Positions 1 to 23,082 of a stretch of DNA of 24,175 nt are shown here, one piece after another. The first letter of the stretch is position 1. The number at the start of each line of letters is the position of its first letter. The notes under the pieces were generated by a model that saw nothing but the letters and a program-made list of their open reading frames with translations, did not search any database and was not told where the DNA came from. Origin of the DNA: a virus. Lineage: Duplodnaviria > Caudoviricetes. The position numbers and the translations under genes were made by a program. The stretch spans positions 1 through 24,175 of IMG/VR virus record IMGVR_UViG_3300038406_000097; one strand, written 5' to 3'.

Positions 1-40
1 GTGGGCGCTGATTCAGCACGAGAATGGGGGTACGAGGGTG

Positions 41-352
41 ATGGCTGAGGAGATCACGTTGCGAGTGGCTCTGCCCGAGGTCGTCGAAACACCCATTAGG
101 ATCTTGGTCAGCTGTGGACTCACCACCGCCTATGTCTACGAGCACGGCGCGCAAGGTGGCGGCTCGTGGGCGGTGTGGACTTACTCTGGCGGGAGCATAA
201 TCGCCGGCGGCACGAACGGCTATTCGCGCGAGCGGGCGCTTACGGACGCATGCGCTCACGTGCGTCGTCAAGAACGGCAACGGCTGCTGTTCGAACAGCT
301 TCGTCGGGCACTGGAGGAGCAGGAACTATTGGACCACCAGGAGGAAACATGA
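41..352 (+). CDS. Hypothetical phage protein
   Basis: ATG at 41 (alternative GTG 38) after GAGGG; stop overlaps the next ATG (ATGA at 349-352). Confidence 0.7.
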   Translation: MAEEITLRVALPEVVETPIRILVSCGLTTAYVYEHGAQGGGSWAVWTYSGGSIIAGGTNGYSRERALTDACAHVRRQERQRLLFEQLRRALEEQELLDHQEET

Positions 353-717
353 CATGTCCAACACCACCCGTCGACGCACTGCGCTTCGAGGACATGCCGA
401 ACGCGGCTGAGGTGCTGCGCTTGGCCGCCGCACGGTTGGAGTCTGGCCGCGGAGTGCCGACGCCCGCGCCGCTGCTGCGCCGCTGGGCCGACGAGCTGGA
501 CGCCACCCCAGCGACGTTCCGGTTGCCAGCAGAGTTGGCTGCCGCCCGTCGCAACGCCTTCGCTGATGGGATGGACTACGCCATTGGACTTCCAGCACCA
601 GATGAGACGCTGCCCGATCCGGTGCTGGACTGGATCGAGGGAATCGCCGCCGAGATCCGTGCCGGGCAGCGCACCATCCCCCGCCAGCCGGCCAACACCA
701 CGGAGGAACCGAAATGA
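349..717 (+). CDS. Hypothetical phage protein
   Basis: AGGAGG RBS before ATG 349 (MTCPTPPVDALRFE...); ATGA coupling at both ends. Confidence 0.75.
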   Translation: MTCPTPPVDALRFEDMPNAAEVLRLAAARLESGRGVPTPAPLLRRWADELDATPATFRLPAELAAARRNAFADGMDYAIGLPAPDETLPDPVLDWIEGIAAEIRAGQRTIPRQPANTTEEPK

Positions 718-935
718 CCATGCCGTCGAGATATGCCTGCCAGACCTGCGGCGCAACCGGCAGGGTGATCCACCGGACGTCACCGAAGGGCGAGCTGTTC
801 GCCGGACAGTGCGCGCAGTGCCTTGGTGGGCAGTCCGCACGGACGATGACCGGCAAGCTTGACGAGGCGCTGACACCGGAGCCGTGGCTGGACGGCGCCG
901 ATGAGGCCACCACCGACACCACGGAGGAGACATGA
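714..935 (+). CDS. Small putative zinc-ribbon protein
   Basis: CQTC...CAQC pairs; GGAGG RBS; ATGA overlaps. Confidence 0.7.
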   Translation: MTMPSRYACQTCGATGRVIHRTSPKGELFAGQCAQCLGGQSARTMTGKLDEALTPEPWLDGADEATTDTTEET

Positions 936-1390
936 GCCGCTGGAAGCTAGCGGCACTGGGCGCCGCCGTCGCCACCCTGATCGGGTGTGTCAGCTCAACC
1001 GCCGAGGTCAACCAACCCGACGCGTTCGATCAGCTGCAGGCCGACCCTGCGCTGGTCCGCGGCGCCGAACACGCACTCGACCAGGCGCCGGCACCTGAAC
1101 CGGGTTGGGCCGTCGGCGTCGTCCTGGCTGAGCAGGAACGGGAAAAGCAGGGCCTGTTGGGCGCCTACGACACGTGGACGATCGCCGTGCTCGGCGCCGA
1201 CGGGTCGATGGCCGTCCTAACCGACGACTGGTGCGACAACGACGACCATCCGGATTCGGCGGACGTGCTGCCAGTGCTCGTCGCACCCGGTGACCTGATC
1301 ACCTGGACGGGCGGGCCCGAGTTGTGCGTCCCGGATGTGCGGGTGCTACGTAAGGCCGCCGCGTTCCTCGACGACGAAGACAATCAATGA
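932..1390 (+). CDS. Putative lipoprotein
   Basis: N-terminus MSRWKLAALGAAVATLIG-C: basic n-region, hydrophobic h-region, lipobox-like LIGC; GGAGGAG RBS. Confidence 0.7.
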   Translation: MSRWKLAALGAAVATLIGCVSSTAEVNQPDAFDQLQADPALVRGAEHALDQAPAPEPGWAVGVVLAEQEREKQGLLGAYDTWTIAVLGADGSMAVLTDDWCDNDDHPDSADVLPVLVAPGDLITWTGGPELCVPDVRVLRKAAAFLDDEDNQ

Positions 1391-1409
1391 CCATGGAGGA
1401 GGAATAGGA

Positions 1410-1754
1410 ATGACTACAGTAGAGTTTCTGCGGGCCAGGTGGGACGAGGACGCGGAGTTCGAGGCCGGGACGGGTGAGTTGGCCGCCAAGCGGCTAATTC
1501 TGGAGCTGGTAGACCTAGTGTGGGACAATGGTGCGATGGCTCGACTGAACCTGGCCATCTGCTACTGGGCGGCTCGGTACTCCGCGCATGAGGACTACGA
1601 CCCGTCGTGGGCTCCAGAGCTATGGGAGGGTGTAGTTAGCTCCGAACGGGTGATTGCGCAGTACCGATGGGAGAGGCCACCACCTGCTACGCGATCGTGG
1701 TGGGGTAGGCGGCAATGGCGTAGAATTTGGAGAGGGGACAAGCGTGAGTCCTGA
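1410..1754 (+). CDS. DUF6221-like protein (short version)
   Basis: VEFLRARWDED...ELAAKRLILE...YSAHEDYDPSW resembles the actinobacterial/phage DUF6221 pattern as recalled; GGAGGAGG upstream of ATG 1410. Confidence 0.65.
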   Translation: MTTVEFLRARWDEDAEFEAGTGELAAKRLILELVDLVWDNGAMARLNLAICYWAARYSAHEDYDPSWAPELWEGVVSSERVIAQYRWERPPPATRSWWGRRQWRRIWRGDKRES

Positions 1755-2031
1755 AGCGACGGTTAGTCATGCTGAATTGGTATCCAAAGTGCGGGAGGTT
1801 CATGAGATTCAGTCATGGCACGGGAACTGGAACTATTCACCATATATGCGAGGCCTGTTCAACGGTCTGGAACTGGCAATGGCTATTCTGGAAGATCGTG
1901 AGCCGTCCTATAAGGATAGCCCGATTCTTCCTGATAGGTATCTTTGTGATCAACCGTCCTACGAGGGTGCGCCCATGAGCAACACTAGTCCCCTTATGAG
2001 GGCTAGGAATTTCGGAGCTGAGGGTGAGTAG
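1744..2031 (+). CDS. Hypothetical phage protein
   Basis: GTG 1744 after GAGGGG; overlaps the end of the previous gene; contains WNYSPYMRGLFNGLELAMA. Confidence 0.7.
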   Translation: MSPEATVSHAELVSKVREVHEIQSWHGNWNYSPYMRGLFNGLELAMAILEDREPSYKDSPILPDRYLCDQPSYEGAPMSNTSPLMRARNFGAEGE

Positions 2032-11395: not shown

Positions 11396-11618
11396 GTGGC
11401 AGCGGTAGCGAGTGAACGAGGCCAACGCTCTCAAGAAGTCGTTGGATAGCAACCAGTTACCGCTGCCACCTAGTCGTGGTAGGGCCGACGAGGTTACGAA
11501 AGCAAGCGCTGCGTGCAGGCCTAGTAATCTGATTTTGTCAGAGAAGAGCCGACCGATCCGAGTAGGCCACTCGGGAAGTTTGTGAGTAGTGCTCAGATTC
11601 GAGGTTCGGCCCTACCAC
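11396..11618 (+). ncRNA. Candidate two-domain structured RNA or ssDNA element between SSB and primase
   Basis: Stem 11396-11409/11456-11469 and perfect 13-bp stem 11476-11488/11606-11618, each enclosing internal hairpins. Confidence 0.5.
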
Positions 11619-11656
11619 CCCATAACCCTTCAATAGCTCCATCCCCCGGAGGTCTC

Positions 11657-13864
11657 GTGGTCGATCGCCGTGAAGGCTTCTTCAAGCTGCTCCTCTCCAC
11701 TGTTGGTGGGCATGTGTGCATTGCTACGAGGACGCCAGGTACCCACAAATTCGTCGAGCGCTTCTTCTACTGGCCTGACCAAGTAGATGAGATGCTTGCG
11801 TACGTTGAGAAGGTGCGCGAAGGTAACAACACCTACTTCTGTCCACAATTACTAGGCGACACTGACTTTCGGCGCGAAAGCGACGGAAAAGGTCCACGAG
11901 TCAAGGAAAACGTCATAGCATGTACCTGTCTCTGGGCAGATCTGGATACATGCAGCCCGGAGAAGCTACTCGTTAGACCGTCAATTGTGTTAGAAAGTTC
12001 TTATGGTAGGTACCAAAGCTTTTGGGTACTCGATAATTCCATGTCACCAACCCAGGCAGAAGACATTACCAGACGAATTACCTACCATCACGTACCTGAC
12101 GGCGCTGATAAGTCCGGATGGGACCTAACTCAGCTCATGCGAGTTCCTTTAACAAAGAACTACAACCATGAAGGCAATCCAACCGTCCGCGTTGAAGATG
12201 TCTACAATGCGAGATACCGCTCAGACGACTTTCAGGTGTACCCCGCCGCTTCGAAGAGAACAGGCGGAGGCATACCAATGCCTGATAAGGAACAAGTTCC
12301 GGTTATCGACAATCCCGTAGAATTCCTTCAAGATCGTCGTAAGCGGATCAACAGTGACGTTTTTCGCCTCTTTAGCGATGAACCCACGGAGAATTCGTGG
12401 AGTGAACCACTATGGAGACTGATGATGTTACTGTTTGAAGGTGGTCTATCACGCGAGGAAGTCCTCGCTATCGTTCAACGAGCCGCTTGTAACAAATATG
12501 GTAGGGATGGTAGACCAGAAAGACATCTGTGGGATGACATATGTCGTGCGTACATTAAGCACATGGAGAACACCAAAGCAGTTGTTGTTCCAGAACTCGA
12601 ATCGGTAGAACTACTCGACGAGGAGGAACTTATACGAGTCAGAGCACATTACACATTTGTTGAAAGGTACGTCGCGTGGGCTACAGGGCTAGGAGACGCC
12701 GCTCCGCAATACCACCAAGCGGGCGCATTTACGATCTTGAGCGCAATCCTGTCTGGGAGAGTCTCGCTTCCTACCTCATTCGGAAATATGATACCCAACC
12801 TGTGGTTCATGCTCCTCGCGGACACGACATTGACGAGGAAGAGCACAGCGATGGACATCGCCATGGACCTACTACTGGATATTGATTCGGACGTTATCAT
12901 GGCGACCGATGGTTCAATCGAAGGTCTTCTACAAGGGTTGTCAACACGCCCAGGAAGACCTTCAATTTTCCTGCGTGATGAGTTCTCCGGTCTGCTAGAG
13001 TCTATGACCAAGAAGGACTACATGGCAGGTATGGCTGAGATGTTCACTAAATTATACGATGGCAAGTTTCAAAAGCGACTCTTGCGAAAGGATCCAGTCG
13101 AAATCCGCGAGCCTGTCCTGATCCTGTTCACAGGTGGAATTCGCAACAGAGTACAGCAACTGCTATCACTCGATCATGTGTCATCAGGCTTTATCCCTCG
13201 ATTCGTCTTCCTGACAGCTGAATCAGACATCAGTCGAGTTAAGCCTCTTGGGCCACCGGTCGTAAGAGACAGGGAAGCTCGAGAAGAACTCCTGACAGAA
13301 GTACGTTCGTTGTACCTTCACTACACCCAAACCGTGAATATCAATGTCGAAGGTACGAGCATTCACATAGCACCACCTAGAAAGTGGTCCGCTCAGCTAA
13401 CACCTGAGGCATGGGCACGGTTCAACAAGTTGGAGGGGGTGTTAAATGATGCTGGAATGAAATCGGACAGACCTGACTTAATCACTCCGGTATACTCACG
13501 TTTAGCTATCTCCACACTGAAAGCTGCAACTTTGCTAGCAGCCTCCGAAACGCGCGAAGATGTTGTAGCAGTCGATGAGATTCACATACTCCACGCTATC
13601 TCTTTCGCAACTAGATGGCGAGGTTACGCTATCGATGTTATCAATGGTGTTGGCAAAACACAAAGCGAGCGAGACATCGAAAGAGTGTATGCCTCCATTC
13701 GTAAGAGTCCTGGTGTGAGTAGATCATCACTTATGCAGAGCTACCACCTTACGGCTCGCACTGCTGACTCTATATTCCAGACACTCGAGCAGAGAGGAAT
13801 GATAACGGGCAATAAATTCGGGAAGGGAACGACATACAGCCCAGTGGAAGGGGAGTTGGAATGA
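11657..13864 (+). CDS. Primase-helicase: RepB-like (AEP) primase + DUF3987-like P-loop domain + C-terminal wHTH
   Basis: CLWADLD, ESSYGRYQSFW and LMRVPLTKN (RepB primase motifs); NLWFMLLADTTLTRKST and LRDEFSG in the C-terminal ATPase domain; GGAGG before GTG 11657 (ORF open from 11582). Confidence 0.85.
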   Translation: MVDRREGFFKLLLSTVGGHVCIATRTPGTHKFVERFFYWPDQVDEMLAYVEKVREGNNTYFCPQLLGDTDFRRESDGKGPRVKENVIACTCLWADLDTCSPEKLLVRPSIVLESSYGRYQSFWVLDNSMSPTQAEDITRRITYHHVPDGADKSGWDLTQLMRVPLTKNYNHEGNPTVRVEDVYNARYRSDDFQVYPAASKRTGGGIPMPDKEQVPVIDNPVEFLQDRRKRINSDVFRLFSDEPTENSWSEPLWRLMMLLFEGGLSREEVLAIVQRAACNKYGRDGRPERHLWDDICRAYIKHMENTKAVVVPELESVELLDEEELIRVRAHYTFVERYVAWATGLGDAAPQYHQAGAFTILSAILSGRVSLPTSFGNMIPNLWFMLLADTTLTRKSTAMDIAMDLLLDIDSDVIMATDGSIEGLLQGLSTRPGRPSIFLRDEFSGLLESMTKKDYMAGMAEMFTKLYDGKFQKRLLRKDPVEIREPVLILFTGGIRNRVQQLLSLDHVSSGFIPRFVFLTAESDISRVKPLGPPVVRDREAREELLTEVRSLYLHYTQTVNINVEGTSIHIAPPRKWSAQLTPEAWARFNKLEGVLNDAGMKSDRPDLITPVYSRLAISTLKAATLLAASETREDVVAVDEIHILHAISFATRWRGYAIDVINGVGKTQSERDIERVYASIRKSPGVSRSSLMQSYHLTARTADSIFQTLEQRGMITGNKFGKGTTYSPVEGELE

Positions 13865-14718
13865 GTAAAAGTATTGCAGTAGTATCAGGCGGTCTTGATA
13901 GCACCACCATGATCTACCACCTTCGTGAGGAGGGTCATGAGCTTCACTTGCTGTCCTTCGACTATGGACAGCGACACAAGAAGGAACTCAAGTTCGCCAG
14001 CATCATCGCTCGCAACTTAGGACTGCGCCACGACATCATCGACCTCACGGGTATCACCCACCTGATTAGCAATAGCGCCCTTACCTCCCACAATATGTGT
14101 TGTTATTCAACCAAGGAGGAGTGCGACGCTAACGGTGGATGTGCCACGATCGAGGTCCCGGAGGGGCACTATGCCGAAGATACCATGAAGCTGACGGTGG
14201 TCCCCAACCGTAACATGATTATGCTTTCGATTGCAGCCGGCATCGCAGTCAACGAGAAAGCTGACTACGTCGCCACTGCTGTCCATGCTGGCGATCATGA
14301 TATCTACCCAGATTGTAGGCCTGCATTCATCGAGGCGGCGAACCGTGCGACTGTAGTTGGTAACGAAGGTCTTGGAATCTTTTCCGATTTTACTAGATTC
14401 TTCAATGCCAGAAGCAACATGCACCCATTCATCGATGCACCTTTCATACACTGGACCAAAACGGACATAGCTTTTCGCGCATTCGAGCTGAACGTTCCTC
14501 TACACATGACATGGAGCTGTTACAAAGGTAACGAGAAGCATTGCGGCCGCTGTGGGACTTGTGTTGAACGCCTCGAAGCTATCAGCGCAGCCCAAGACAT
14601 GATTCGCGCTCAGGGCTTCGCTATTGGCGGAACCGAATACATGGATCAAACAGAGTATGAAGATAACGAGTACTGGAAGACGGTGATAGTACATGAAGCG
14701 CGCAGTCGTCACGCTTAG
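13861..14718 (+). CDS. queC: 7-cyano-7-deazaguanine (preQ0) synthase
   Basis: SGGLDS PP-loop, FDYGQRH, VPNRN, YPDCR, TWSCY...CGRCGTC Zn site. Confidence 0.97.
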   Translation: MSKSIAVVSGGLDSTTMIYHLREEGHELHLLSFDYGQRHKKELKFASIIARNLGLRHDIIDLTGITHLISNSALTSHNMCCYSTKEECDANGGCATIEVPEGHYAEDTMKLTVVPNRNMIMLSIAAGIAVNEKADYVATAVHAGDHDIYPDCRPAFIEAANRATVVGNEGLGIFSDFTRFFNARSNMHPFIDAPFIHWTKTDIAFRAFELNVPLHMTWSCYKGNEKHCGRCGTCVERLEAISAAQDMIRAQGFAIGGTEYMDQTEYEDNEYWKTVIVHEARSRHA

Positions 14719-14926
14719 GGTTGAAGACGTCGAAAAGTTCCTTGACCTACCCGAAGGGGTGAGCATCGCCGGGCTACGCGACAACTGGCAAATGCTGGGT
14801 ATTGACGCACTACTTGAGGGTTCAAATCTTCCTGTGGAAGAACACGTTCCAGGCGCTGAGCCTCCCCATTTGCACCTAATTCGACATACTGCTGTTCGAC
14901 TGACATTGGAGATGAAGACGCAGTGA
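14693..14926 (+). CDS. Hypothetical phage protein
   Basis: Overlaps the queC end; GTGA-coupled to the next ORF. Confidence 0.6.
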   Translation: MKRAVVTLRVEDVEKFLDLPEGVSIAGLRDNWQMLGIDALLEGSNLPVEEHVPGAEPPHLHLIRHTAVRLTLEMKTQ

Positions 14927-15126
14927 AAACAGAAGAGAATCCCCTAAGCAGTGCGCAGCAAGTGCGAGCAGCTGCTTTGCGTGAGGCACGGGCTGTAATG
15001 GGTGACAAAACACCATTCACCAGTAGTGCCATAAATCCGATAGATCTCGTCGAGGTAGCTCAATGGATTGTGGATGGGCACAACACCTGGACAGATGCCC
15101 CCGCGGTTGTTTCACCAACATCATGA
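14923..15126 (+). CDS. Hypothetical phage protein
   Basis: GGAGATG upstream; fills the gap before queD. Confidence 0.6.
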   Translation: MKTEENPLSSAQQVRAAALREARAVMGDKTPFTSSAINPIDLVEVAQWIVDGHNTWTDAPAVVSPTS

Positions 15127-15591
15127 GTGGTAGGTGAAGAAGTGACATTCATTGCTGTACGGCATAACATAGAAGTGGCACATCGCCTCTATGAACTACC
15201 AGGCAAGTGCCAAAACATCCACGGCCACTCGATGTTGATAGAGATGCAATTGCATGGATATCCTAACAAGCATGGCGTACTGGAGGATCTACCCTTTGGA
15301 GACGTCAAAAAGAGGTTCCGTGCTCATCTAGACGAAGTCTTCGATCACCACCTACTCTTGAACGAGAACGATCCTTGGGCACACCCTCTAGCCCCAATTG
15401 GAGCGCCTATTGCTGACTATCGAATGTTGCCAGGGCTTGTAGTAATGCCAAACGATCCCACTACAGAAAATCTTGCTAGGTGGATCGCTGAGTGGTCCAT
15501 TAACGAATTCAACCTACACGTAGAAGTTACCGTCGATGAGACTGGTACCAATTCAGCTGGCTATATGATGGCCCCCAGAATCGGAGACTAG
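15127..15591 (+). CDS. queD: 6-carboxy-5,6,7,8-tetrahydropterin synthase
   Basis: AHRL, CQNIHGHS, FDHHLL, PTTENLA, ETGTNSA; true start possibly GTG 15142. Confidence 0.95.
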   Translation: MVGEEVTFIAVRHNIEVAHRLYELPGKCQNIHGHSMLIEMQLHGYPNKHGVLEDLPFGDVKKRFRAHLDEVFDHHLLLNENDPWAHPLAPIGAPIADYRMLPGLVVMPNDPTTENLARWIAEWSINEFNLHVEVTVDETGTNSAGYMMAPRIGD

Positions 15592-15592
15592 C

Positions 15593-15802
15593 ATGAACCT
15601 AAGGAAAATTGCCCTAGAACATCCAACGCGACCTAAGTACAATCCCACCATTCAGCTTGAGGGTCGTCCTATATACGGAACTACTGATCTGGGCGCGACA
15701 ATTCTTATAGCTGTTGCTCCCAAAGAATACCACTATATGGTAGCATCAGCTATCGCAGCGTGGTATAACTGCAAACTCGAAGGCGAGCCAACCATCACCT
15801 GA
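15593..15802 (+). CDS. Hypothetical phage protein
   Basis: GGAGA RBS; fills the queD-queE gap. Confidence 0.6.
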   Translation: MNLRKIALEHPTRPKYNPTIQLEGRPIYGTTDLGATILIAVAPKEYHYMVASAIAAWYNCKLEGEPTIT

Positions 15803-15824
15803 ATAGCCCTCTGGGGGAGGACTG

Positions 15825-16529
15825 ATGCGCGTATCGGAAGTCTATAGATCAATACAGGGAGAAGGGCCGAAAGTAGGATTACCCACAACTTTCCTTCGCT
15901 TTGCAGGTTGCAACTTGAGGTGTCCTAGTTGGCCTTGTGATACGCCTCATGCTATCTTTCCTGAGGAGTACAGGAAGGAGTGGACAACGGTGTCGCCAGA
16001 AGAACTCGCCAACGAGGTCATCACAATATCCGCACCCGGAGAAAATATCTGCTTTACGGGTGGTGAGCCTTTTCTCCAGCACAACGCACAACTGAAATGG
16101 TTGACAGACCACCTGCAAATTGCTGATCGCGGTCTCGAATGCTTTAGCAACGGAACACTCGTTATTCCAGAGTGGGCCTTCGAAAAGATCGACTTCGTCA
16201 TCGACTGGAAACTACCAGGCAGCGGAGAGATAAACTTCAATGCCGAAATCTTCCTAGCAAACCTCCACAGGGCGCTTGGGAGTTGGCAGGGTGCAAAGAG
16301 GCACTCACTTAAGTTTACTGTAGCCAGCTTCGACGACTTTGTCAAAGCTGTCGAACGACTCGATGCTAACAAGAAGCTAGAAGAGCTACAAGTCTTCGTC
16401 GGTCCGGTTTGGGGTAAGGTTGAACCTCGCGAGGTTGCTAGGTGGATACTCGAGTGGTACGATCTTGACTGGCGACTCAACCTCCAAACACACAAGTACA
16501 TCTGGAATCCGGATGCGAGGAGGACGTAG
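15825..16529 (+). CDS. queE: 7-carboxy-7-deazaguanine synthase (radical SAM)
   Basis: SIQGEG, FLRFAGCNLRCPSWPCDT, TGGEP, DWKLPGSG, LQTHKYIW; GGAGG RBS. Confidence 0.96.
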   Translation: MRVSEVYRSIQGEGPKVGLPTTFLRFAGCNLRCPSWPCDTPHAIFPEEYRKEWTTVSPEELANEVITISAPGENICFTGGEPFLQHNAQLKWLTDHLQIADRGLECFSNGTLVIPEWAFEKIDFVIDWKLPGSGEINFNAEIFLANLHRALGSWQGAKRHSLKFTVASFDDFVKAVERLDANKKLEELQVFVGPVWGKVEPREVARWILEWYDLDWRLNLQTHKYIWNPDARRT

Positions 16530-16596
16530 GCAAAGTCAGAGGCCCTGTGGAAGCCTTGCGGACAACCTAGACAGATTCGCAGATAGGAGTAGGTGA

Positions 16597-16932
16597 ATGA
16601 AGAAGCGTTATGTGATAACACGTAACCAGGCACCGTCTGTTGGCGCAAACGGCATTTCCAATGCGCGCCTGACTGATCAAGAGGTCGAGGAGCTCCGTAA
16701 GCAGGGGGCTCAGGTAGATCTGCGTAAGGATCTGGAAGTGGTACCCAATCGTGCAATGCTGCGAGCTCAAGGTTATGGTAAAAAGCCTGCACGTCGTAGG
16801 CGTACACGTAAGAGTAATGTGTTCACGACCATGGAGCAGCACTTTCGCCCTAACGGACTTACTCGAGGTAAGAAGCAGGTGTATCGCTTCCCGATTCCTC
16901 AGGGGATGTTTAGTAAGCAGGATCGAGCATGA
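16597..16932 (+). CDS. Basic hypothetical protein
   Basis: AGGAGTAGGTG RBS; Arg/Lys-rich (KKPARRRRTRK); ATGA-coupled to folE. Confidence 0.65.
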   Translation: MKKRYVITRNQAPSVGANGISNARLTDQEVEELRKQGAQVDLRKDLEVVPNRAMLRAQGYGKKPARRRRTRKSNVFTTMEQHFRPNGLTRGKKQVYRFPIPQGMFSKQDRA

Positions 16933-17537
16933 GTATGCCCTCTCCGTCCTCCTACACTAGGCAGCAAGAGGTTGAACTCAACTGGACGGCTTCCCTACTG
17001 GAGACTTACGCAGGACTCACGGATGGTGATGAGCATAGTAATGAAACACCTCGTCGGTTTCTGGATATGCTGAACGAGCTGACTGCACACAGACGCGACA
17101 AGTGTAATGGTGACTGTATGAAGTTCAAAACGTTCCTAAATGACGGTATGGACGAGATGATTGTTGTGCAGGGTATTCCGTTCGTATCCGTGTGCAATCA
17201 TCACATTATACCGTTTATGGGCTTTGCCCATGTTGCGTATGTGCCTAACGAGAAGATAGCTGGCTTGAGTAAGTTCGCTCGCGTAGTGGATCACTTCGCA
17301 CGTTCATTGCAGATACAAGAACGTCTCACAGCGCAAATCGCCGATTATCTGCAAGAGATGCTTCGGCCTCGCGGCGTGGGAGTTGTTCTAAGGGCGGAGC
17401 ACCTTTGTATGACCATTCGGGGTGTACAGAAGCCAGGCGCCGTGACTACTACAGCGTCCATGCAGGGCGTATTCAGCGATCACACTAGGACAGCTAAGTC
17501 TGAGTTTATGCTCTACCTAAACGGGTCCCATCAGTAA
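16929..17537 (+). CDS. folE: GTP cyclohydrolase I
   Basis: ETPRR, SVCNHH, GLSKFARVV, LQIQERLT, HLCMTIRGV. Confidence 0.97.
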   Translation: MSMPSPSSYTRQQEVELNWTASLLETYAGLTDGDEHSNETPRRFLDMLNELTAHRRDKCNGDCMKFKTFLNDGMDEMIVVQGIPFVSVCNHHIIPFMGFAHVAYVPNEKIAGLSKFARVVDHFARSLQIQERLTAQIADYLQEMLRPRGVGVVLRAEHLCMTIRGVQKPGAVTTTASMQGVFSDHTRTAKSEFMLYLNGSHQ

Positions 17538-17567
17538 AGTAGTACCAAGAGTGTAGGGGAGTGCAGT

Positions 17568-17909
17568 ATGGATCTTAAGGAGATAGTTCGTCAGTGTCGA
17601 GGTGATAGTAAACGTTGGTTTCCTAACAATTGGAATAACAATACGGAAGCTGATGTTGCTTTCCACATCCTTGCTACTGCAGGCGAGGCAGGGGAGTTAG
17701 CAAACCAAATGAAGAAAGTCCTGCGTGGAGATATCTCCTTCGAAGAAGCTAAATCAAGCATCTCCGAAGAAGCTATTGACGTTTTCATCTATCTTTGCAA
17801 CATCTTCGCACTGCTCGAGGTCGATCCTGTCAAGCTCTATGCAATCAAGAGGAGACGGAATGAACAGCGGTTCGGCAATCGACCCAGTGGTGCTGCAGCA
17901 ACTCTCTAA
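17568..17909 (+). CDS. MazG-like nucleotide pyrophosphohydrolase
   Basis: GEAGELANQMKK...EEAIDVFIYL (ExxE...EExxD all-alpha NTP-PPase metal motif). Confidence 0.88.
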   Translation: MDLKEIVRQCRGDSKRWFPNNWNNNTEADVAFHILATAGEAGELANQMKKVLRGDISFEEAKSSISEEAIDVFIYLCNIFALLEVDPVKLYAIKRRRNEQRFGNRPSGAAATL

Positions 17910-18156
17910 TGAGTTTGATGCGATTTGTATGGAGCGGCACCTCATGGGTGCTGAGAAGTATGGTGAAGGTACCTACCTAGGTGTCGATACTTTGCAGATG
18001 GCGCTAGAGGAGATTGCGGACCTTGCAAACTATGCAAGGTACACGTTCATCAAGATTCGCTTAATGCAGGAGAACTTTAACATCGACAGTTCAGCAGTAC
18101 AACCAGTTCCAAAGCCTAGGTCAGGGTTCTTTAGTTACAGAAAGGACCAGAAATGA
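17860..18156 (+). CDS. Putative second all-alpha (d)NTP pyrophosphatase
   Basis: GAGGAG RBS before ATG 17860; GAEKYG...ALEEIADLANY resembles the phage dNTP-diphosphohydrolase/MazG-superfamily helix motif. Confidence 0.6.
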   Translation: MNSGSAIDPVVLQQLSNEFDAICMERHLMGAEKYGEGTYLGVDTLQMALEEIADLANYARYTFIKIRLMQENFNIDSSAVQPVPKPRSGFFSYRKDQK

Positions 18157-18959
18157 GGGTGGCTCTTATTCCCCCGCGTGGATTGGAGAACTACGCACTA
18201 CGATCGAGGTTTCACTTAGCCTTGGCGATTCCGACATTGCTAACGAGACAGACATATGGAGGCATGTATAAGCGTGCCGCCAAGCTTGGTGACTATGTAG
18301 TCATGGATAATGGTGCTAACGAAGGGCAACGAGCAACTGGGCAACTACTATGTGACTTAGCTACAAACTTCGGATGTCAAGAAGTGGTTCTCCCTGATGT
18401 GTTGTACGACAAATACGGTACTATTATGGGTGCTAAGGTTTACTTGATGGGTGGGTACGGGGGACTGGGCCTCAGGAAGATGGCAGTCCTTCAGGGTAAG
18501 GACCCGACTGATCTGAAGAGCTGTGCTATCAGATTTGCCGATATACCTCAGATAACTGTGGTCGGAATTCCGCGTCATAGCATCGTGACGATGAATCGTC
18601 CAGCCGTACGGATTGAAATAGCAAATTGGATAGAAGACCGCTTTCCGAAACGGTTTAAGATCCACCTCTTGGGTACGAATTCTGCCTACCTAGGCGAAGT
18701 ATCAGCAGCCCAAAAGTACGCCCCACACATTCGGTCTGTAGATACTTCAATGCCTTTTAATTATGCTATAGCCCACCGATCTTTGACCAGAGTTACCGAC
18801 ACTGTAATACGCCCAGAGCGGTATTTCACAGACGATTGGTCGGGCCGTATTGACGTTAACCTTCTCCGCGACAATATTGACACCCTAATGGAGTGGGCTG
18901 GTGAAGTTGGTAGAGAGGAAGCACGCGTGGGCACAATGCGAACAGTGCCCACTAGCTGA
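18153..18959 (+). CDS. dpdA: DpdA-like TGT-fold 7-deazaguanine transglycosylase/transferase
   Basis: TIM-barrel TGT motifs VVMDNGA, LPDV, AVLQG, VGIP, HLLG, RSVDTS; lacks the CxCxxC...H Zn subdomain of tRNA TGTs; adjacent to queCDE/folE. Confidence 0.82.
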   Translation: MRVALIPPRGLENYALRSRFHLALAIPTLLTRQTYGGMYKRAAKLGDYVVMDNGANEGQRATGQLLCDLATNFGCQEVVLPDVLYDKYGTIMGAKVYLMGGYGGLGLRKMAVLQGKDPTDLKSCAIRFADIPQITVVGIPRHSIVTMNRPAVRIEIANWIEDRFPKRFKIHLLGTNSAYLGEVSAAQKYAPHIRSVDTSMPFNYAIAHRSLTRVTDTVIRPERYFTDDWSGRIDVNLLRDNIDTLMEWAGEVGREEARVGTMRTVPTS

Positions 18960-21324
18960 AGATGGGCGATTTGTCCCTTCTGAGATACCTACAAATCCTC
19001 GTTTAGTCGTAGTAGGTGAGGCACCAGGTTTTGAGGAGGTTAAGTACGGAAGACCTTTCATTGGACCTTCGGGACAATTACTAGATCAGGTACTGAAGCA
19101 CCATGGGTACGAACGAGAAGAGGTAATGTACACAAATGCTGCGCTTTGTCGGCCTTCGAATAATACGACTCCTCCTAAGGCTGCAATTCGTGCATGTAGA
19201 GAACGTCTACTTCGTGAGATTATCGGCTCGGGAGTACAAGACATACTTGCGCTTGGTGGGACGGCATCAGCTACTGTCATTGACGATAGAAGGCTTATTA
19301 CCACCCTTCGAATGGGTCCACCCAAGTCGCCTACGGACGACTTTTTACGACTCTCAAAACATATCGAGGGTGGGAATGGAGGTCCTACGCGGGTTGTCGC
19401 GTCCTGGCATCCGGCATACGCTCTCCGCAACAGTGACGCTTTCCCCTCACTCGTCGCCGACGTAGGAAAGCTGAAGGGCGTAAAAACGGACATTTGGCAA
19501 CCACCTGACTGGAAGTACTTTGAGAATCCTGTTGACGCTCAAACTGTGCTTACGCAGATCATGGCCTGGCAAGATCTGCATCAGTCTTACGAACTCGTTG
19601 TCGACATTGAAACGGGTATTGATAAAGACAATAGTTATGACCACCCAAATGAGTACGATCTTCTCTGTGTAGGACTAGGATATACTAAAGGCAAGGTGGT
19701 CGTTATTGGATATGACCCTTGCCACGCTAAGAGTGTACTAGACCTACTCAAAAAGCTTTTTCGCAGGTCTAAGCTTATTGCCCAGAACGGTAAATTCGAC
19801 CTCGCGGGGCTATATCCCCATTTAGGTCCCCTCGAGTTGTGGTTCGATACAATGCTGGCTAGTTACTGTTTGGACGAGCGTCCTGGAAATCATAAGCTCA
19901 AGACTTTAGGCCTCGAACTCCTAGGGACCCCTGAATGGGAACATGAAATACTTAGGTTCATACCTAGAGGCGGTAACTACGCAAACATCCCTCGACCCGT
20001 TCTCTACAAGTATAATGCCTACGATGTGGCAGTAACATGGGACTTGAAGGAGCTCTTCACTCCGAAACTTGACACTCCTCGTCGCCCTGATGATTGGCCT
20101 TATCAGGACAGGCCGTTCAAATCGCTTAGGGACCTGCACGACTTCTTAGTCAGAGCATCAAATCAGCTCATGTTCTTGGAGCTCAACGGTTTAACTATCG
20201 ATCGCGCATACCAAAACAAACTTCGGGAGATCTTTGGGGTTCGACTCGGAACCCTCGAAAGCCGTCTAACGGAAATTGCTGGTTACGAGCTCAACCCACG
20301 TAGTCCTAAACAGCTCAAGGAGTATTTCGCCGAACAGAAAATCATGTTAGACTCCACTAACAAGGACACGTTAGAACAACTTCTGGAGATCCTACGTAAG
20401 CGGGACGACACAACTAGCGACACCGTTCAATTCATTGAGACACTCCTCGTACACAGACGACAACAAAAACTCTCTTCAACTTACGTTGAAGGAATTAGGA
20501 AGCGTATGTATCGAGGTAGGGTATACTCCACCTACCTTCTTCACGGATCAACCTCTGGACGACTTACTAGTCGCAATCCGAATCTTCAGAACATTGATCG
20601 CGATAGGGATATTCGTAGGCAGTTTGCCGTTGCAAAGCCTGAGAATATCTTTGTACACACCGATTTCAAGCAAGCTGAGGGTCGAGTTATTGCCTACCTA
20701 GCCCAGGATGAGTATCTACGGGAGGTATTTAATAACCCAAAGATCGACATCTTTGACGAACTATCCAATCAGTTGTACGGTGTGGGCAATTGGAGGAAAG
20801 AAGTTGAGCGGATTAGGACAAAAGCCTTCTTCTATGGCCTCTCCTACGGGCGAGAAGCATACTCAATCGCCATGGAGTTCGGACTGTCTGTGTCTGAAGC
20901 CGAACGACGTATGCAGGAGTTCCTGTCCCTTATTCCTGCTACAGCGGCATGGCAGAAGGCGACTAGGGATGAAGTCTTGGCGGGGAAGGACCTCATCACA
21001 CCTTTCGGACGCCGCCGCCGGTTCTGGCTAATTACAGAGCATAATAAGAAGGATATTCTAAACGAGGCTTTATCCTTCCTCCCACAGTCAACATCTTCTG
21101 ATATATGCCTCGATGCTCTTATACATATCCGACCACGACTTCGAGGCATTGGATTTGTCCGACTCACAATTCATGATGCCCTAGTCGCAGAGTGTCACGA
21201 GAGTCGTAGAGAAGAAGTAACTAACATCATGATCGAGGAGATGATGGCTGCTGGAGAGCGTTTTACTAATTATGTACCATTTCCAGTTGATGTGTCATAC
21301 GGCAAGACATGGGGAGATTTGTGA
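18901..21324 (+). CDS. Family A DNA polymerase with N-terminal family-4 uracil-DNA glycosylase-like domain and 3'-5' exonuclease
   Basis: UDG4: CEQCPL, GEAPG, GRPFIGPSG, TNAALCRP, HPAYALR. Exo: VVDIETG, QNGKFDL, YNAYDV. Pol: TSGRLTSRNPNLQNI, DFKQAEGR, KAFFYGLSYG, TIHDAL. Confidence 0.96.
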   Translation: MKLVERKHAWAQCEQCPLAEDGRFVPSEIPTNPRLVVVGEAPGFEEVKYGRPFIGPSGQLLDQVLKHHGYEREEVMYTNAALCRPSNNTTPPKAAIRACRERLLREIIGSGVQDILALGGTASATVIDDRRLITTLRMGPPKSPTDDFLRLSKHIEGGNGGPTRVVASWHPAYALRNSDAFPSLVADVGKLKGVKTDIWQPPDWKYFENPVDAQTVLTQIMAWQDLHQSYELVVDIETGIDKDNSYDHPNEYDLLCVGLGYTKGKVVVIGYDPCHAKSVLDLLKKLFRRSKLIAQNGKFDLAGLYPHLGPLELWFDTMLASYCLDERPGNHKLKTLGLELLGTPEWEHEILRFIPRGGNYANIPRPVLYKYNAYDVAVTWDLKELFTPKLDTPRRPDDWPYQDRPFKSLRDLHDFLVRASNQLMFLELNGLTIDRAYQNKLREIFGVRLGTLESRLTEIAGYELNPRSPKQLKEYFAEQKIMLDSTNKDTLEQLLEILRKRDDTTSDTVQFIETLLVHRRQQKLSSTYVEGIRKRMYRGRVYSTYLLHGSTSGRLTSRNPNLQNIDRDRDIRRQFAVAKPENIFVHTDFKQAEGRVIAYLAQDEYLREVFNNPKIDIFDELSNQLYGVGNWRKEVERIRTKAFFYGLSYGREAYSIAMEFGLSVSEAERRMQEFLSLIPATAAWQKATRDEVLAGKDLITPFGRRRRFWLITEHNKKDILNEALSFLPQSTSSDICLDALIHIRPRLRGIGFVRLTIHDALVAECHESRREEVTNIMIEEMMAAGERFTNYVPFPVDVSYGKTWGDL

Positions 21325-22650: not shown

Positions 22651-23082
22651 ATGTTTGTAATCATCTCGGGTAGGCAGGGCGGTAAGACGGACACTGTGGT
22701 CAGGTGGCTTATCGAAGATCCCGAGCGCAGGATTGCACTAGTTGCAAGTGAGAGCCGGAAAAGGTCCCTCCTCAACCGCGTTTTGCTGCTCTCTCCGAGC
22801 AGTATCACAAAGAGCTTCTGGCAGGACCGTATCAGAGTCGCTAGTGAACTACTAGGCGGCGGCAGCGGGTTTCGGGGGAGGGGGCCGCACCAGATAGGCA
22901 TTGACGACTTAGAAGATGTCTTAGGGGTCCTACTAAGCTTCGTTACCGGAGGTATTCTTGAGCTGGTTACTATGACTGCCACACCCATTATCCTTCCAGT
23001 AACTGCAGGAACTGAGGGGGAGGAGAAGAGAGGCACACCGCTGCGGCGAGAAGGGACGAATTTACAAGAGAAAAGATCTTGA
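22651..23082 (+). CDS. Small P-loop NTPase-like protein
   Basis: N-terminal IISGRQGGKT (Walker A) and IGIDD (Walker B-like); GGGGGAG RBS. Confidence 0.65.
   Translation: MFVIISGRQGGKTDTVVRWLIEDPERRIALVASESRKRSLLNRVLLLSPSSITKSFWQDRIRVASELLGGGSGFRGRGPHQIGIDDLEDVLGVLLSFVTGGILELVTMTATPIILPVTAGTEGEEKRGTPLRREGTNLQEKRS

Follow-up and report, generated by a model that had tools for sequence, protein, structure and literature searches.

Phages that encode a guanine transglycosylase of the DpdA3 subfamily can have all of their guanine (G) replaced by 7-deazaguanines, as reported for the three that have been analyzed chemically, CP220, phiST, and immuto_2-6A (Cui 2023, PMC10516641). Rosebush and CAjan, which combine a DpdA1 enzyme with the same four synthesis genes as the locus described below, contain 28–32% dPreQ0 (PMC6884629). 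A route through modified deoxyguanosine triphosphate (dGTP) has already been proposed for Campylobacter phages according to Hutinet 2019 (PMC6884629), and a precedent for the hydrolase that such a route would employ is MazZ of Z-genome phages, a MazG-fold (d)GTP diphosphohydrolase yielding deoxyguanosine monophosphate (dGMP; PMC8342488). The published model of how DpdA3 phages arrive at 100% G replacement is post-replicative, although DpdA3 itself is not known to be active, and a literature search on DpdA3/DpdA4 and deazaguanine, with subscription papers outside its scope, found no paper testing the mechanism. Here, we describe a 24,175-nucleotide stretch of virus DNA (IMG/VR record IMGVR_UViG_3300038406_000097, positions 1 to 24,175; "the window") in which queC, queD, queE, folE, a MazG-family gene, a small gene of unknown function, and dpdA3 lie between a primase gene and a family A DNA polymerase gene (PolA) with a uracil-DNA glycosylase (UDG) domain; the last three module genes are called 17568, 17860, and 18153 after their first positions. 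We read this locus as a DpdA3-type module that likely replaces most or all G, with free nucleotides as the likely stage of replacement, and give this reading a probability of about 0.5.

The 18153 protein had no match in Pfam, PHROGs, or NCBIfam at the usual limits, and its assignment to the DpdA3 subfamily comes from profile comparisons and a predicted fold. A model computed from a family alignment of 109 proteins (108 of 117 matches plus the query) reached a predicted local distance difference test score of 95.6; the PDB matches listed for it are all tRNA-guanine transglycosylases (TGTs), and its best named viral fold match is a 259-residue phiST protein (template modeling score 0.80) with the length of CGPG_00065. 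Profile–profile alignment with hhalign gave the family probabilities of 99.2 against phiST CGPG_00065, 99.0 against gp9 of Brevundimonas phage StAshley, 98.6 against CP220 CPT_0056, and 0.7 against CAjan DpdA1. A tblastn search found gp57 of Bacillus phage BSP7 (BSP7_057, AYJ76173; 30%, E = 7e-6), which Cui 2023 list as DpdA3 alongside FolE, QueD, QueE, and QueC (PMC10516641). Residues D52, N53, D82, H171, G174, and D197 are identical across 8 of 8 aligned DpdA3-type proteins, and the window protein shares D52, N53, D82, Q114, H171, and D197 with the enzymes of CP220, phiST, and immuto_2-6A. Matched by motif order and not by a structural alignment, D52, D82, Q114, and D197 presumably correspond to D102, D156, Q203, and D280 of TGT, and with these equivalences the catalytic aspartate and base-binding positions of the TGT barrel are kept. 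Since the DpdA3 profile matches 4,211 clusters at E ≤ 1e-10, the family is large. The near-complete G substitution proposed in a preliminary description of this DNA, which had not recognized DpdA3, gains support from this membership, because wholesale replacement is the known outcome in the three analyzed DpdA3 phages without normal G.

Inheritance of the module is all or none. The loci come from searches with DpdA3, MazG, and primase, three of which contributed their top 80 matches (out of 158, 355, and 249) and one all of its 32, and the ratios among them are not prevalences. In the 74 distinct loci spanning primase to polymerase that were counted, loci not spanning this region being left out, dpdA3 occurs 70 times; these 70 spans contain the MazG gene in 60 cases, the 17860 gene in 64, both in 55, and at least one of them in 69. 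Four loci of lower GC content (0.44; L222, L282, L284, and L285) hold none of the seven module genes, and their primase and polymerase open reading frames (ORFs) lie 144–198 nucleotides apart. In a MazG scan, the top ~30 matches all came from module-bearing loci except L108, weaker ones coming from unrelated phages without que genes, and module-less L222 encodes a different MazG type elsewhere in its locus; MazG is common in general, yet the 17568 subfamily in this slot tracks the module.

This pattern bears on a modest version of events in which only tens of percent of G are modified, as in CAjan, Rosebush, and HVTV-1, by a diverged branch of DpdA3 with MazG and 17860 as ordinary replication-region genes. 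The chemically analyzed DpdA3 phages all differ in layout from the window lineage, 43 of the 109 family members show weak matches to DUF6610 (DpdA4), and the same four que genes give the partial outcome quoted above when combined with DpdA1. We nevertheless find partial modification quite unlikely, as the window DpdA3 is closest by profile and fold to those of phiST and CP220, and MazG and 17860 disappear together with the que genes in the four module-less sisters.

Of 10 other DpdA3 loci, 9 have a gene resembling nucleoside monophosphate (NMP) kinases close to dpdA3, versus 0 of 7 DpdA1/2/4 loci. In phiST, CP220, and immuto_2-6A alike, both a nucleotide hydrolase gene and an NMP-kinase-like one lie no more than three genes away from dpdA3. 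The order in phiST is MazG, DpdL, an AAA_18 kinase-like gene, and, immediately 3' of it, dpdA3; CP220 (CPT_0055-0057, L315:18543-21036) has a fusion of an HD hydrolase with a P-loop domain before DpdA3, recalling DatZ, and a P-loop kinase-like gene after it; and immuto_2-6A has a PRA-PH pyrophosphohydrolase two genes before and an annotated thymidylate kinase three genes after dpdA3. Immediately before dpdA3 lies a P-loop gene in BSP7 and Youna2 (with a weak dNK match for the BSP7 one) and an AAA_18 gene in MA9V-3, while in two further loci (L309:5082-5996 and L310:3489-4457) the gene directly or almost directly upstream of dpdA3 encodes a fusion of DpdL with an NMP-kinase-like domain. In StAshley, a deoxynucleoside monophosphate (dNMP) kinase is found 6 kb downstream with a ribonucleotide reductase (RNR) and a phosphoribosyltransferase (PRTase). 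PDB searches with the neighboring kinase-like proteins returned weak matches only. The seven DpdA1/2/4 loci (CAjan, ACP17, and HCTV-1 as labeled by Cui 2023; Hedgerow, phi47:1, ValKK3, and Quinobequin as assigned by us) showed no P-loop motif over flanks of up to 7.5 kb, some of them shorter and the same motif scan having missed L309 and L310, and no kinase or MazG among the neighbors scanned; ACP17 (DpdA2) has a dUTPase 7 kb away. Cui 2023 mention MazG/dUTPase in phiST, and the word "kinase" is absent from the main text and the searched portion of the supplement (PMC10516641). Taken together with the co-inheritance of MazG, these kinase and hydrolase neighbors support, without proving, a nucleotide-level route over the published post-replicative model.

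Under that model, DpdA3 would act on finished DNA as a transglycosylase efficient enough to exchange almost all of its G, and MazG and 17860 would travel with the module as pool-cleaning helpers, for example by removing modified nucleoside triphosphates (NTPs) or recycling released guanine. We regard this as possible but doubtful. The TGT fold with its conserved catalytic aspartate positions and the activity on DNA of every DpdA relative assayed speak for it, as does the argument of Cui 2023 (PMC10516641), and so do the lack of a recognizable kinase in the window lineage and the net positive charge of the window DpdA3 (34 K+R vs 27 D+E). On the other hand, it leaves unexplained why kinases are beside or fused into DpdA3 modules and none accompany DpdA1/2/4, DpdA3 gave no modification when tested in E. 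coli (PMC10516641), and the majority of DpdA3 proteins are either neutral or acidic. Net charge itself was discarded as a substrate clue, being uninformative across the family (median +1, range −21 to +10, n = 109 proteins). The missing TGT zinc motif was likewise discarded as an indication of a nucleotide substrate, DpdA1 also being without it.

A number of observations weigh against nucleotide-level replacement of most G, a route that the preliminary description had favored and that stands only in part, with the co-inherited MazG and the neighbors of DpdA3 elsewhere on one side and the conclusion of Cui 2023 that all insertion is post-replicative on the other (PMC10516641). In the window lineage, a motif scan and searches with four small kinase profiles turned up no P-loop NMP kinase, neither in the window nor among 11 long relatives (0/11; 43–55 kb, 7 with terminal repeats), and the window itself is a 24-kb linear record with an estimated completeness of 40%. 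A search with AAA_18 gave 4 matches in 35 virus records, all at an AAA ATPase-sized ORF, and is insensitive because it also missed the BSP7 gene. PA5oct, a DpdA3 phage according to Cui 2023, has no kinase in the stretch covered, whose downstream side is just 1.4 kb long, and no MazG adjoins dpdA3 in BSP7 or Youna2. The 17568-subfamily MazG is missing from 10 of the 70 modules, phages that have no que genes commonly encode MazG-like proteins as well, and the structures closest to 17568 are dCTP and house-cleaning enzymes, none of them G-specific. The four module-less controls may, moreover, reflect one single gain or loss event.

Gene 17568 is predicted to encode a MazG-family NTP pyrophosphatase, for which dGTP is the likely substrate by analogy with MazZ. 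E40, E43, E68, D71, K49, K50, and R101 are invariant, the MazG metal ligands are kept in 46 of 46 aligned members, and the profile matches structures of an integron MazG and dCTP pyrophosphatase 1 (E = 4e-13 to 1e-10); no MazZ chain is among its 10 PDB matches, which carry no sign of a guanine preference.

The 17860 protein had been described as a second pyrophosphatase, an identification that we abandon: it has a single EExxD helix and found no support from Pfam, PHROGs, a PDB profile search, a viral fold search (nothing significant), hhalign (probability 0.3 against the MazG family), or the ESM Atlas. A homodimer prediction for it scored 0.29 (mark 0.42), which speaks neither for nor against a dimer. 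Besides phrog_11184, a related gene was seen in 3 loci outside the window lineage. Six modules are without 17860. One of them (L231) has in its slot a gene that we take to be DUF3310-like, by our own recognition rather than a Pfam scan, and in two others (L042 and L074) a DUF3310-like gene lies between dpdA3 and polA. The modules of L061, L096, and L235 hold a gene that is presumably Nmad1-like; L235 has neither a 17568-type MazG nor 17860, and another MazG-type ORF and a CMP N-glycosidase-like ORF (weak, E = 0.39) precede dpdA3. The L231 protein matched 590 phage records, with a nucleotide kinase annotation in 3 of the 25 shown, and DUF3310 has been tied to the T7 gp1.7 nucleotide kinase (PMC9339283). 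Homology of 17860 to DUF3310-like proteins was rejected (hhalign probability 0.11), leaving a link by position only, and homology to the Nmad1-like genes was rejected alongside. Because both gene types also co-occur with 17860 and DUF3310-like genes are found in module-less phages too, the swap is a lead only. 17860 occupies the slot that a P-loop kinase holds in other DpdA3 phages, and it is a candidate for a non-P-loop nucleotide kinase or a second pool enzyme.

The nucleotide-level route that we prefer can be laid out as follows. FolE, QueD, QueE, and QueC convert GTP to preQ0 (or ADG), and would do so here. MazG would hydrolyze dGTP to dGMP and in this way both take away the competing nucleotide and provide the substrate, the part played by MazZ in Z-genome phages, and DpdA3 would then exchange the base of dGMP. 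Phosphorylation of the modified monophosphate would fall to the 17860 protein or to host kinases, either of which is invoked because the window lineage has no P-loop kinase; host kinases serve in Z-genome phages. Finally, the ordinary UDG–PolA would incorporate the modified nucleotide. The product is likely dPreQ0 or dADG, going by CP220, which with the same five genes makes dADG, and by DpdA1 phages, which with the four synthesis genes make dPreQ0; the ADG nucleoside has been found in the cytoplasm of infected Campylobacter cells (PMC10516641). A nucleotide-level route might also bypass dGMP if the base entered via a host or phage PRTase and RNR, with DpdA3 merely removing residual G from DNA. 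PRTase genes do occur in the DpdA3 modules of immuto_2-6A, StAshley, L309, and L310, and in StAshley the RNR and dNMP kinase are adjacent, but the window has neither PRTase nor RNR and none stood out among the accessory ORFs of the 74 spans, which makes this very unlikely.

If the nucleotide-level route is correct, free nucleotides are the substrate of an enzyme with a TGT fold, and a handful of genes could be enough to produce DNA whose guanine is entirely 7-deazaguanine and which many restriction enzymes would fail to cut. In the most far-reaching form, which we consider unlikely, this large uncultured lineage would build a G-free genome before replication with three dedicated genes, MazG (dGTP to dGMP), DpdA3 (base exchange on the free nucleotide), and 17860 as a new family of non-P-loop kinases; it would then be a guanine counterpart of the Z-genome pathway that is portable to other hosts. 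With a compact co-inherited module, natural module-less sisters, and relatives cultured in Bacillus subtilis, the lineage makes the question directly testable.

The polymerase had been presented as a special part of the system, which does not hold: UDG–PolA is a core replication gene shared with the module-less sisters. Its adjacency to dpdA was rejected as evidence, given that dpdA also lies near the polymerase in CAjan and Quinobequin and such neighbors occur in partly modified DpdA1 phages. Against the DpoZ model the window polymerase scored 41 bits (cut-off 500). An O-helix RxRxK motif, present in 66 of 66 distinct module-linked polymerase motifs versus RTMVK in the module-less sisters, is a lineage marker and does not prove selectivity, given RARLK in Amigo, which showed no que genes over the 18 kb viewed, and RNQAK in immuto_2-6A. 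PolAs fused to UDG are a described group (PMC13697223). The UDG domain (window 18901-19500) retains the GEAPG and HP motifs along with four invariant cysteines; in module-less sisters the motifs are altered (GGGPN and no HP in L222).

Genes of the replication region all share one orientation (Table 1), and the co-oriented run of queC, queD, queE, folE, MazG, TGT-fold, and PolA genes seen before is confirmed by Pfam and TIGR matches, profile, and fold, including the overlaps of 50, 4, and 59 nucleotides among the last four genes. An AGGAGA resembling a ribosome-binding site precedes the ATG of 17860. As previously noted, QueF, ArcS, and an amidotransferase are missing from the window, with none among 36 scanned ORFs. 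An actinobacterial host, implied by the earlier label "actinophage," is a possibility suggested by the primase, which is 27–30% identical to those of Streptomyces, Arthrobacter, and Curtobacterium phages; a motif scan for WhiB as a host marker found none in the window and 12 genomes.

Table 1. Genes of the window from primase to polymerase, with the evidence for each.
Feature	Position	Strand	Evidence or remark
Primase/helicase	11582..13864	+	phrog_10514, E 3.6e-93; upstream module border
queC, 7-cyano-7-deazaguanine synthase	13861..14718	+	PF06508, E 1.5e-55; TIGR00364 above cut-off
Four small variable ORFs inside the module (14693, 14923, 15593, 16597)	14693..16932	+	unconserved: 6, 1, 1, 1 of 82 sequences
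queD, 6-carboxytetrahydropterin synthase	15127..15591	+	PF01242 (PTPS), E 3e-21; phrog_2389
queE, radical SAM CDG synthase	15825..16529	+	TIGR03963, E 1.2e-33; phrog_2076
folE, GTP cyclohydrolase I	16929..17537	+	PF01227, E 1.8e-57
MazG-family all-alpha NTP pyrophosphatase (predicted)	17568..17909	+	metal ligands intact
17860 protein, 98 aa, two helices (RHxxGxEKYG ... EExxDxxNY)	17860..18156	+	phrog_11184, function unknown
DpdA3-subfamily guanine transglycosylase (predicted), TGT barrel, 268 aa (D52, D82, Q114, D197)	18153..18959	+	profile and fold
Family A DNA polymerase with N-terminal family-4-type UDG domain	18901..21324	+	PF00476, 2e-63; PF03167, 8e-25; borders module

Several features in and around the module are recorded here in their own right. 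Four relatives (L015:5089-6481, L070, L096, and L107) have a two-gene insert within the que cluster, a methyltransferase-like ORF and one of unknown family, for which extra tailoring is possible, and five (L010:4677-5634, L078, L090, L199, and L223) have a small ORF and a DJ-1/PfpI-like ORF, recognized by eye, between queC and queD that could be an amidotransferase-like partner. A 143-residue ORF without a family match, carrying Walker A and B-like motifs, lies at window 22651-23082 before a RuvC-like gene and occurs in a minority of relatives; it was rejected as the module's kinase (located outside the module, Walker A only, without a Pfam match, and seen by BLAST in 14/82). GC content is 0.61–0.66 at window 1-2000 and ~0.49 across the remainder. 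Among cultured phages, unannotated DpdA3 genes absent from the Cui 2023 list were seen in StAshley (L159:3976-4776), Youna2 (L001:9001-9771), and MA9V-3 (L308:7001-7795). The PA5oct protein listed as DpdA3 has 540 residues and fails the short DpdA3 profile; a glycosyltransferase gene follows it (L317:26986-29669), as one follows that of ACP17 DpdA2 (L319:7007-9306), and a glycosylated deazaguanine is possible.

Compared with known systems, the window shares its four synthesis genes with the DpdA1 dPreQ0 systems of CAjan and Rosebush, and in CAjan dpdA also adjoins the polymerase, but their DpdA1 does not match the window DpdA, ~30% of G is modified, and no MazG or kinase lies nearby. The Z-cluster of PurZ, MazZ, and DatZ offers a working analogy in its pairing of a base-synthesis enzyme with a MazG-fold hydrolase (PMC8342488), although the window has no PurZ and no DatZ and its polymerase falls below the DpoZ cut-off. 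CP220 (dADG), phiST (dDG), and immuto_2-6A (fdPreQ1) have a homologous DpdA3 and a nucleotide hydrolase near dpdA3 like the window, and differ in their NMP-kinase-like neighbors and gene content: phiST has DpdL and is without QueC, immuto_2-6A has QueF and DpdN, and the genes of CP220 are scattered. Bacillus phages BSP7 and BSTP5 (PMC10516641, Data S1) and Weizmannia phage Youna2 share the order primase-queC-queD-queE-folE-...-dpdA3-UDG-PolA, with DpdA3 proteins 28–30% identical to that of the window. Where these phages have a P-loop NMP-kinase-like gene before dpdA3, the window has MazG and 17860, and this kinase-less DpdA3 layout with the 17860 gene is what is new here.

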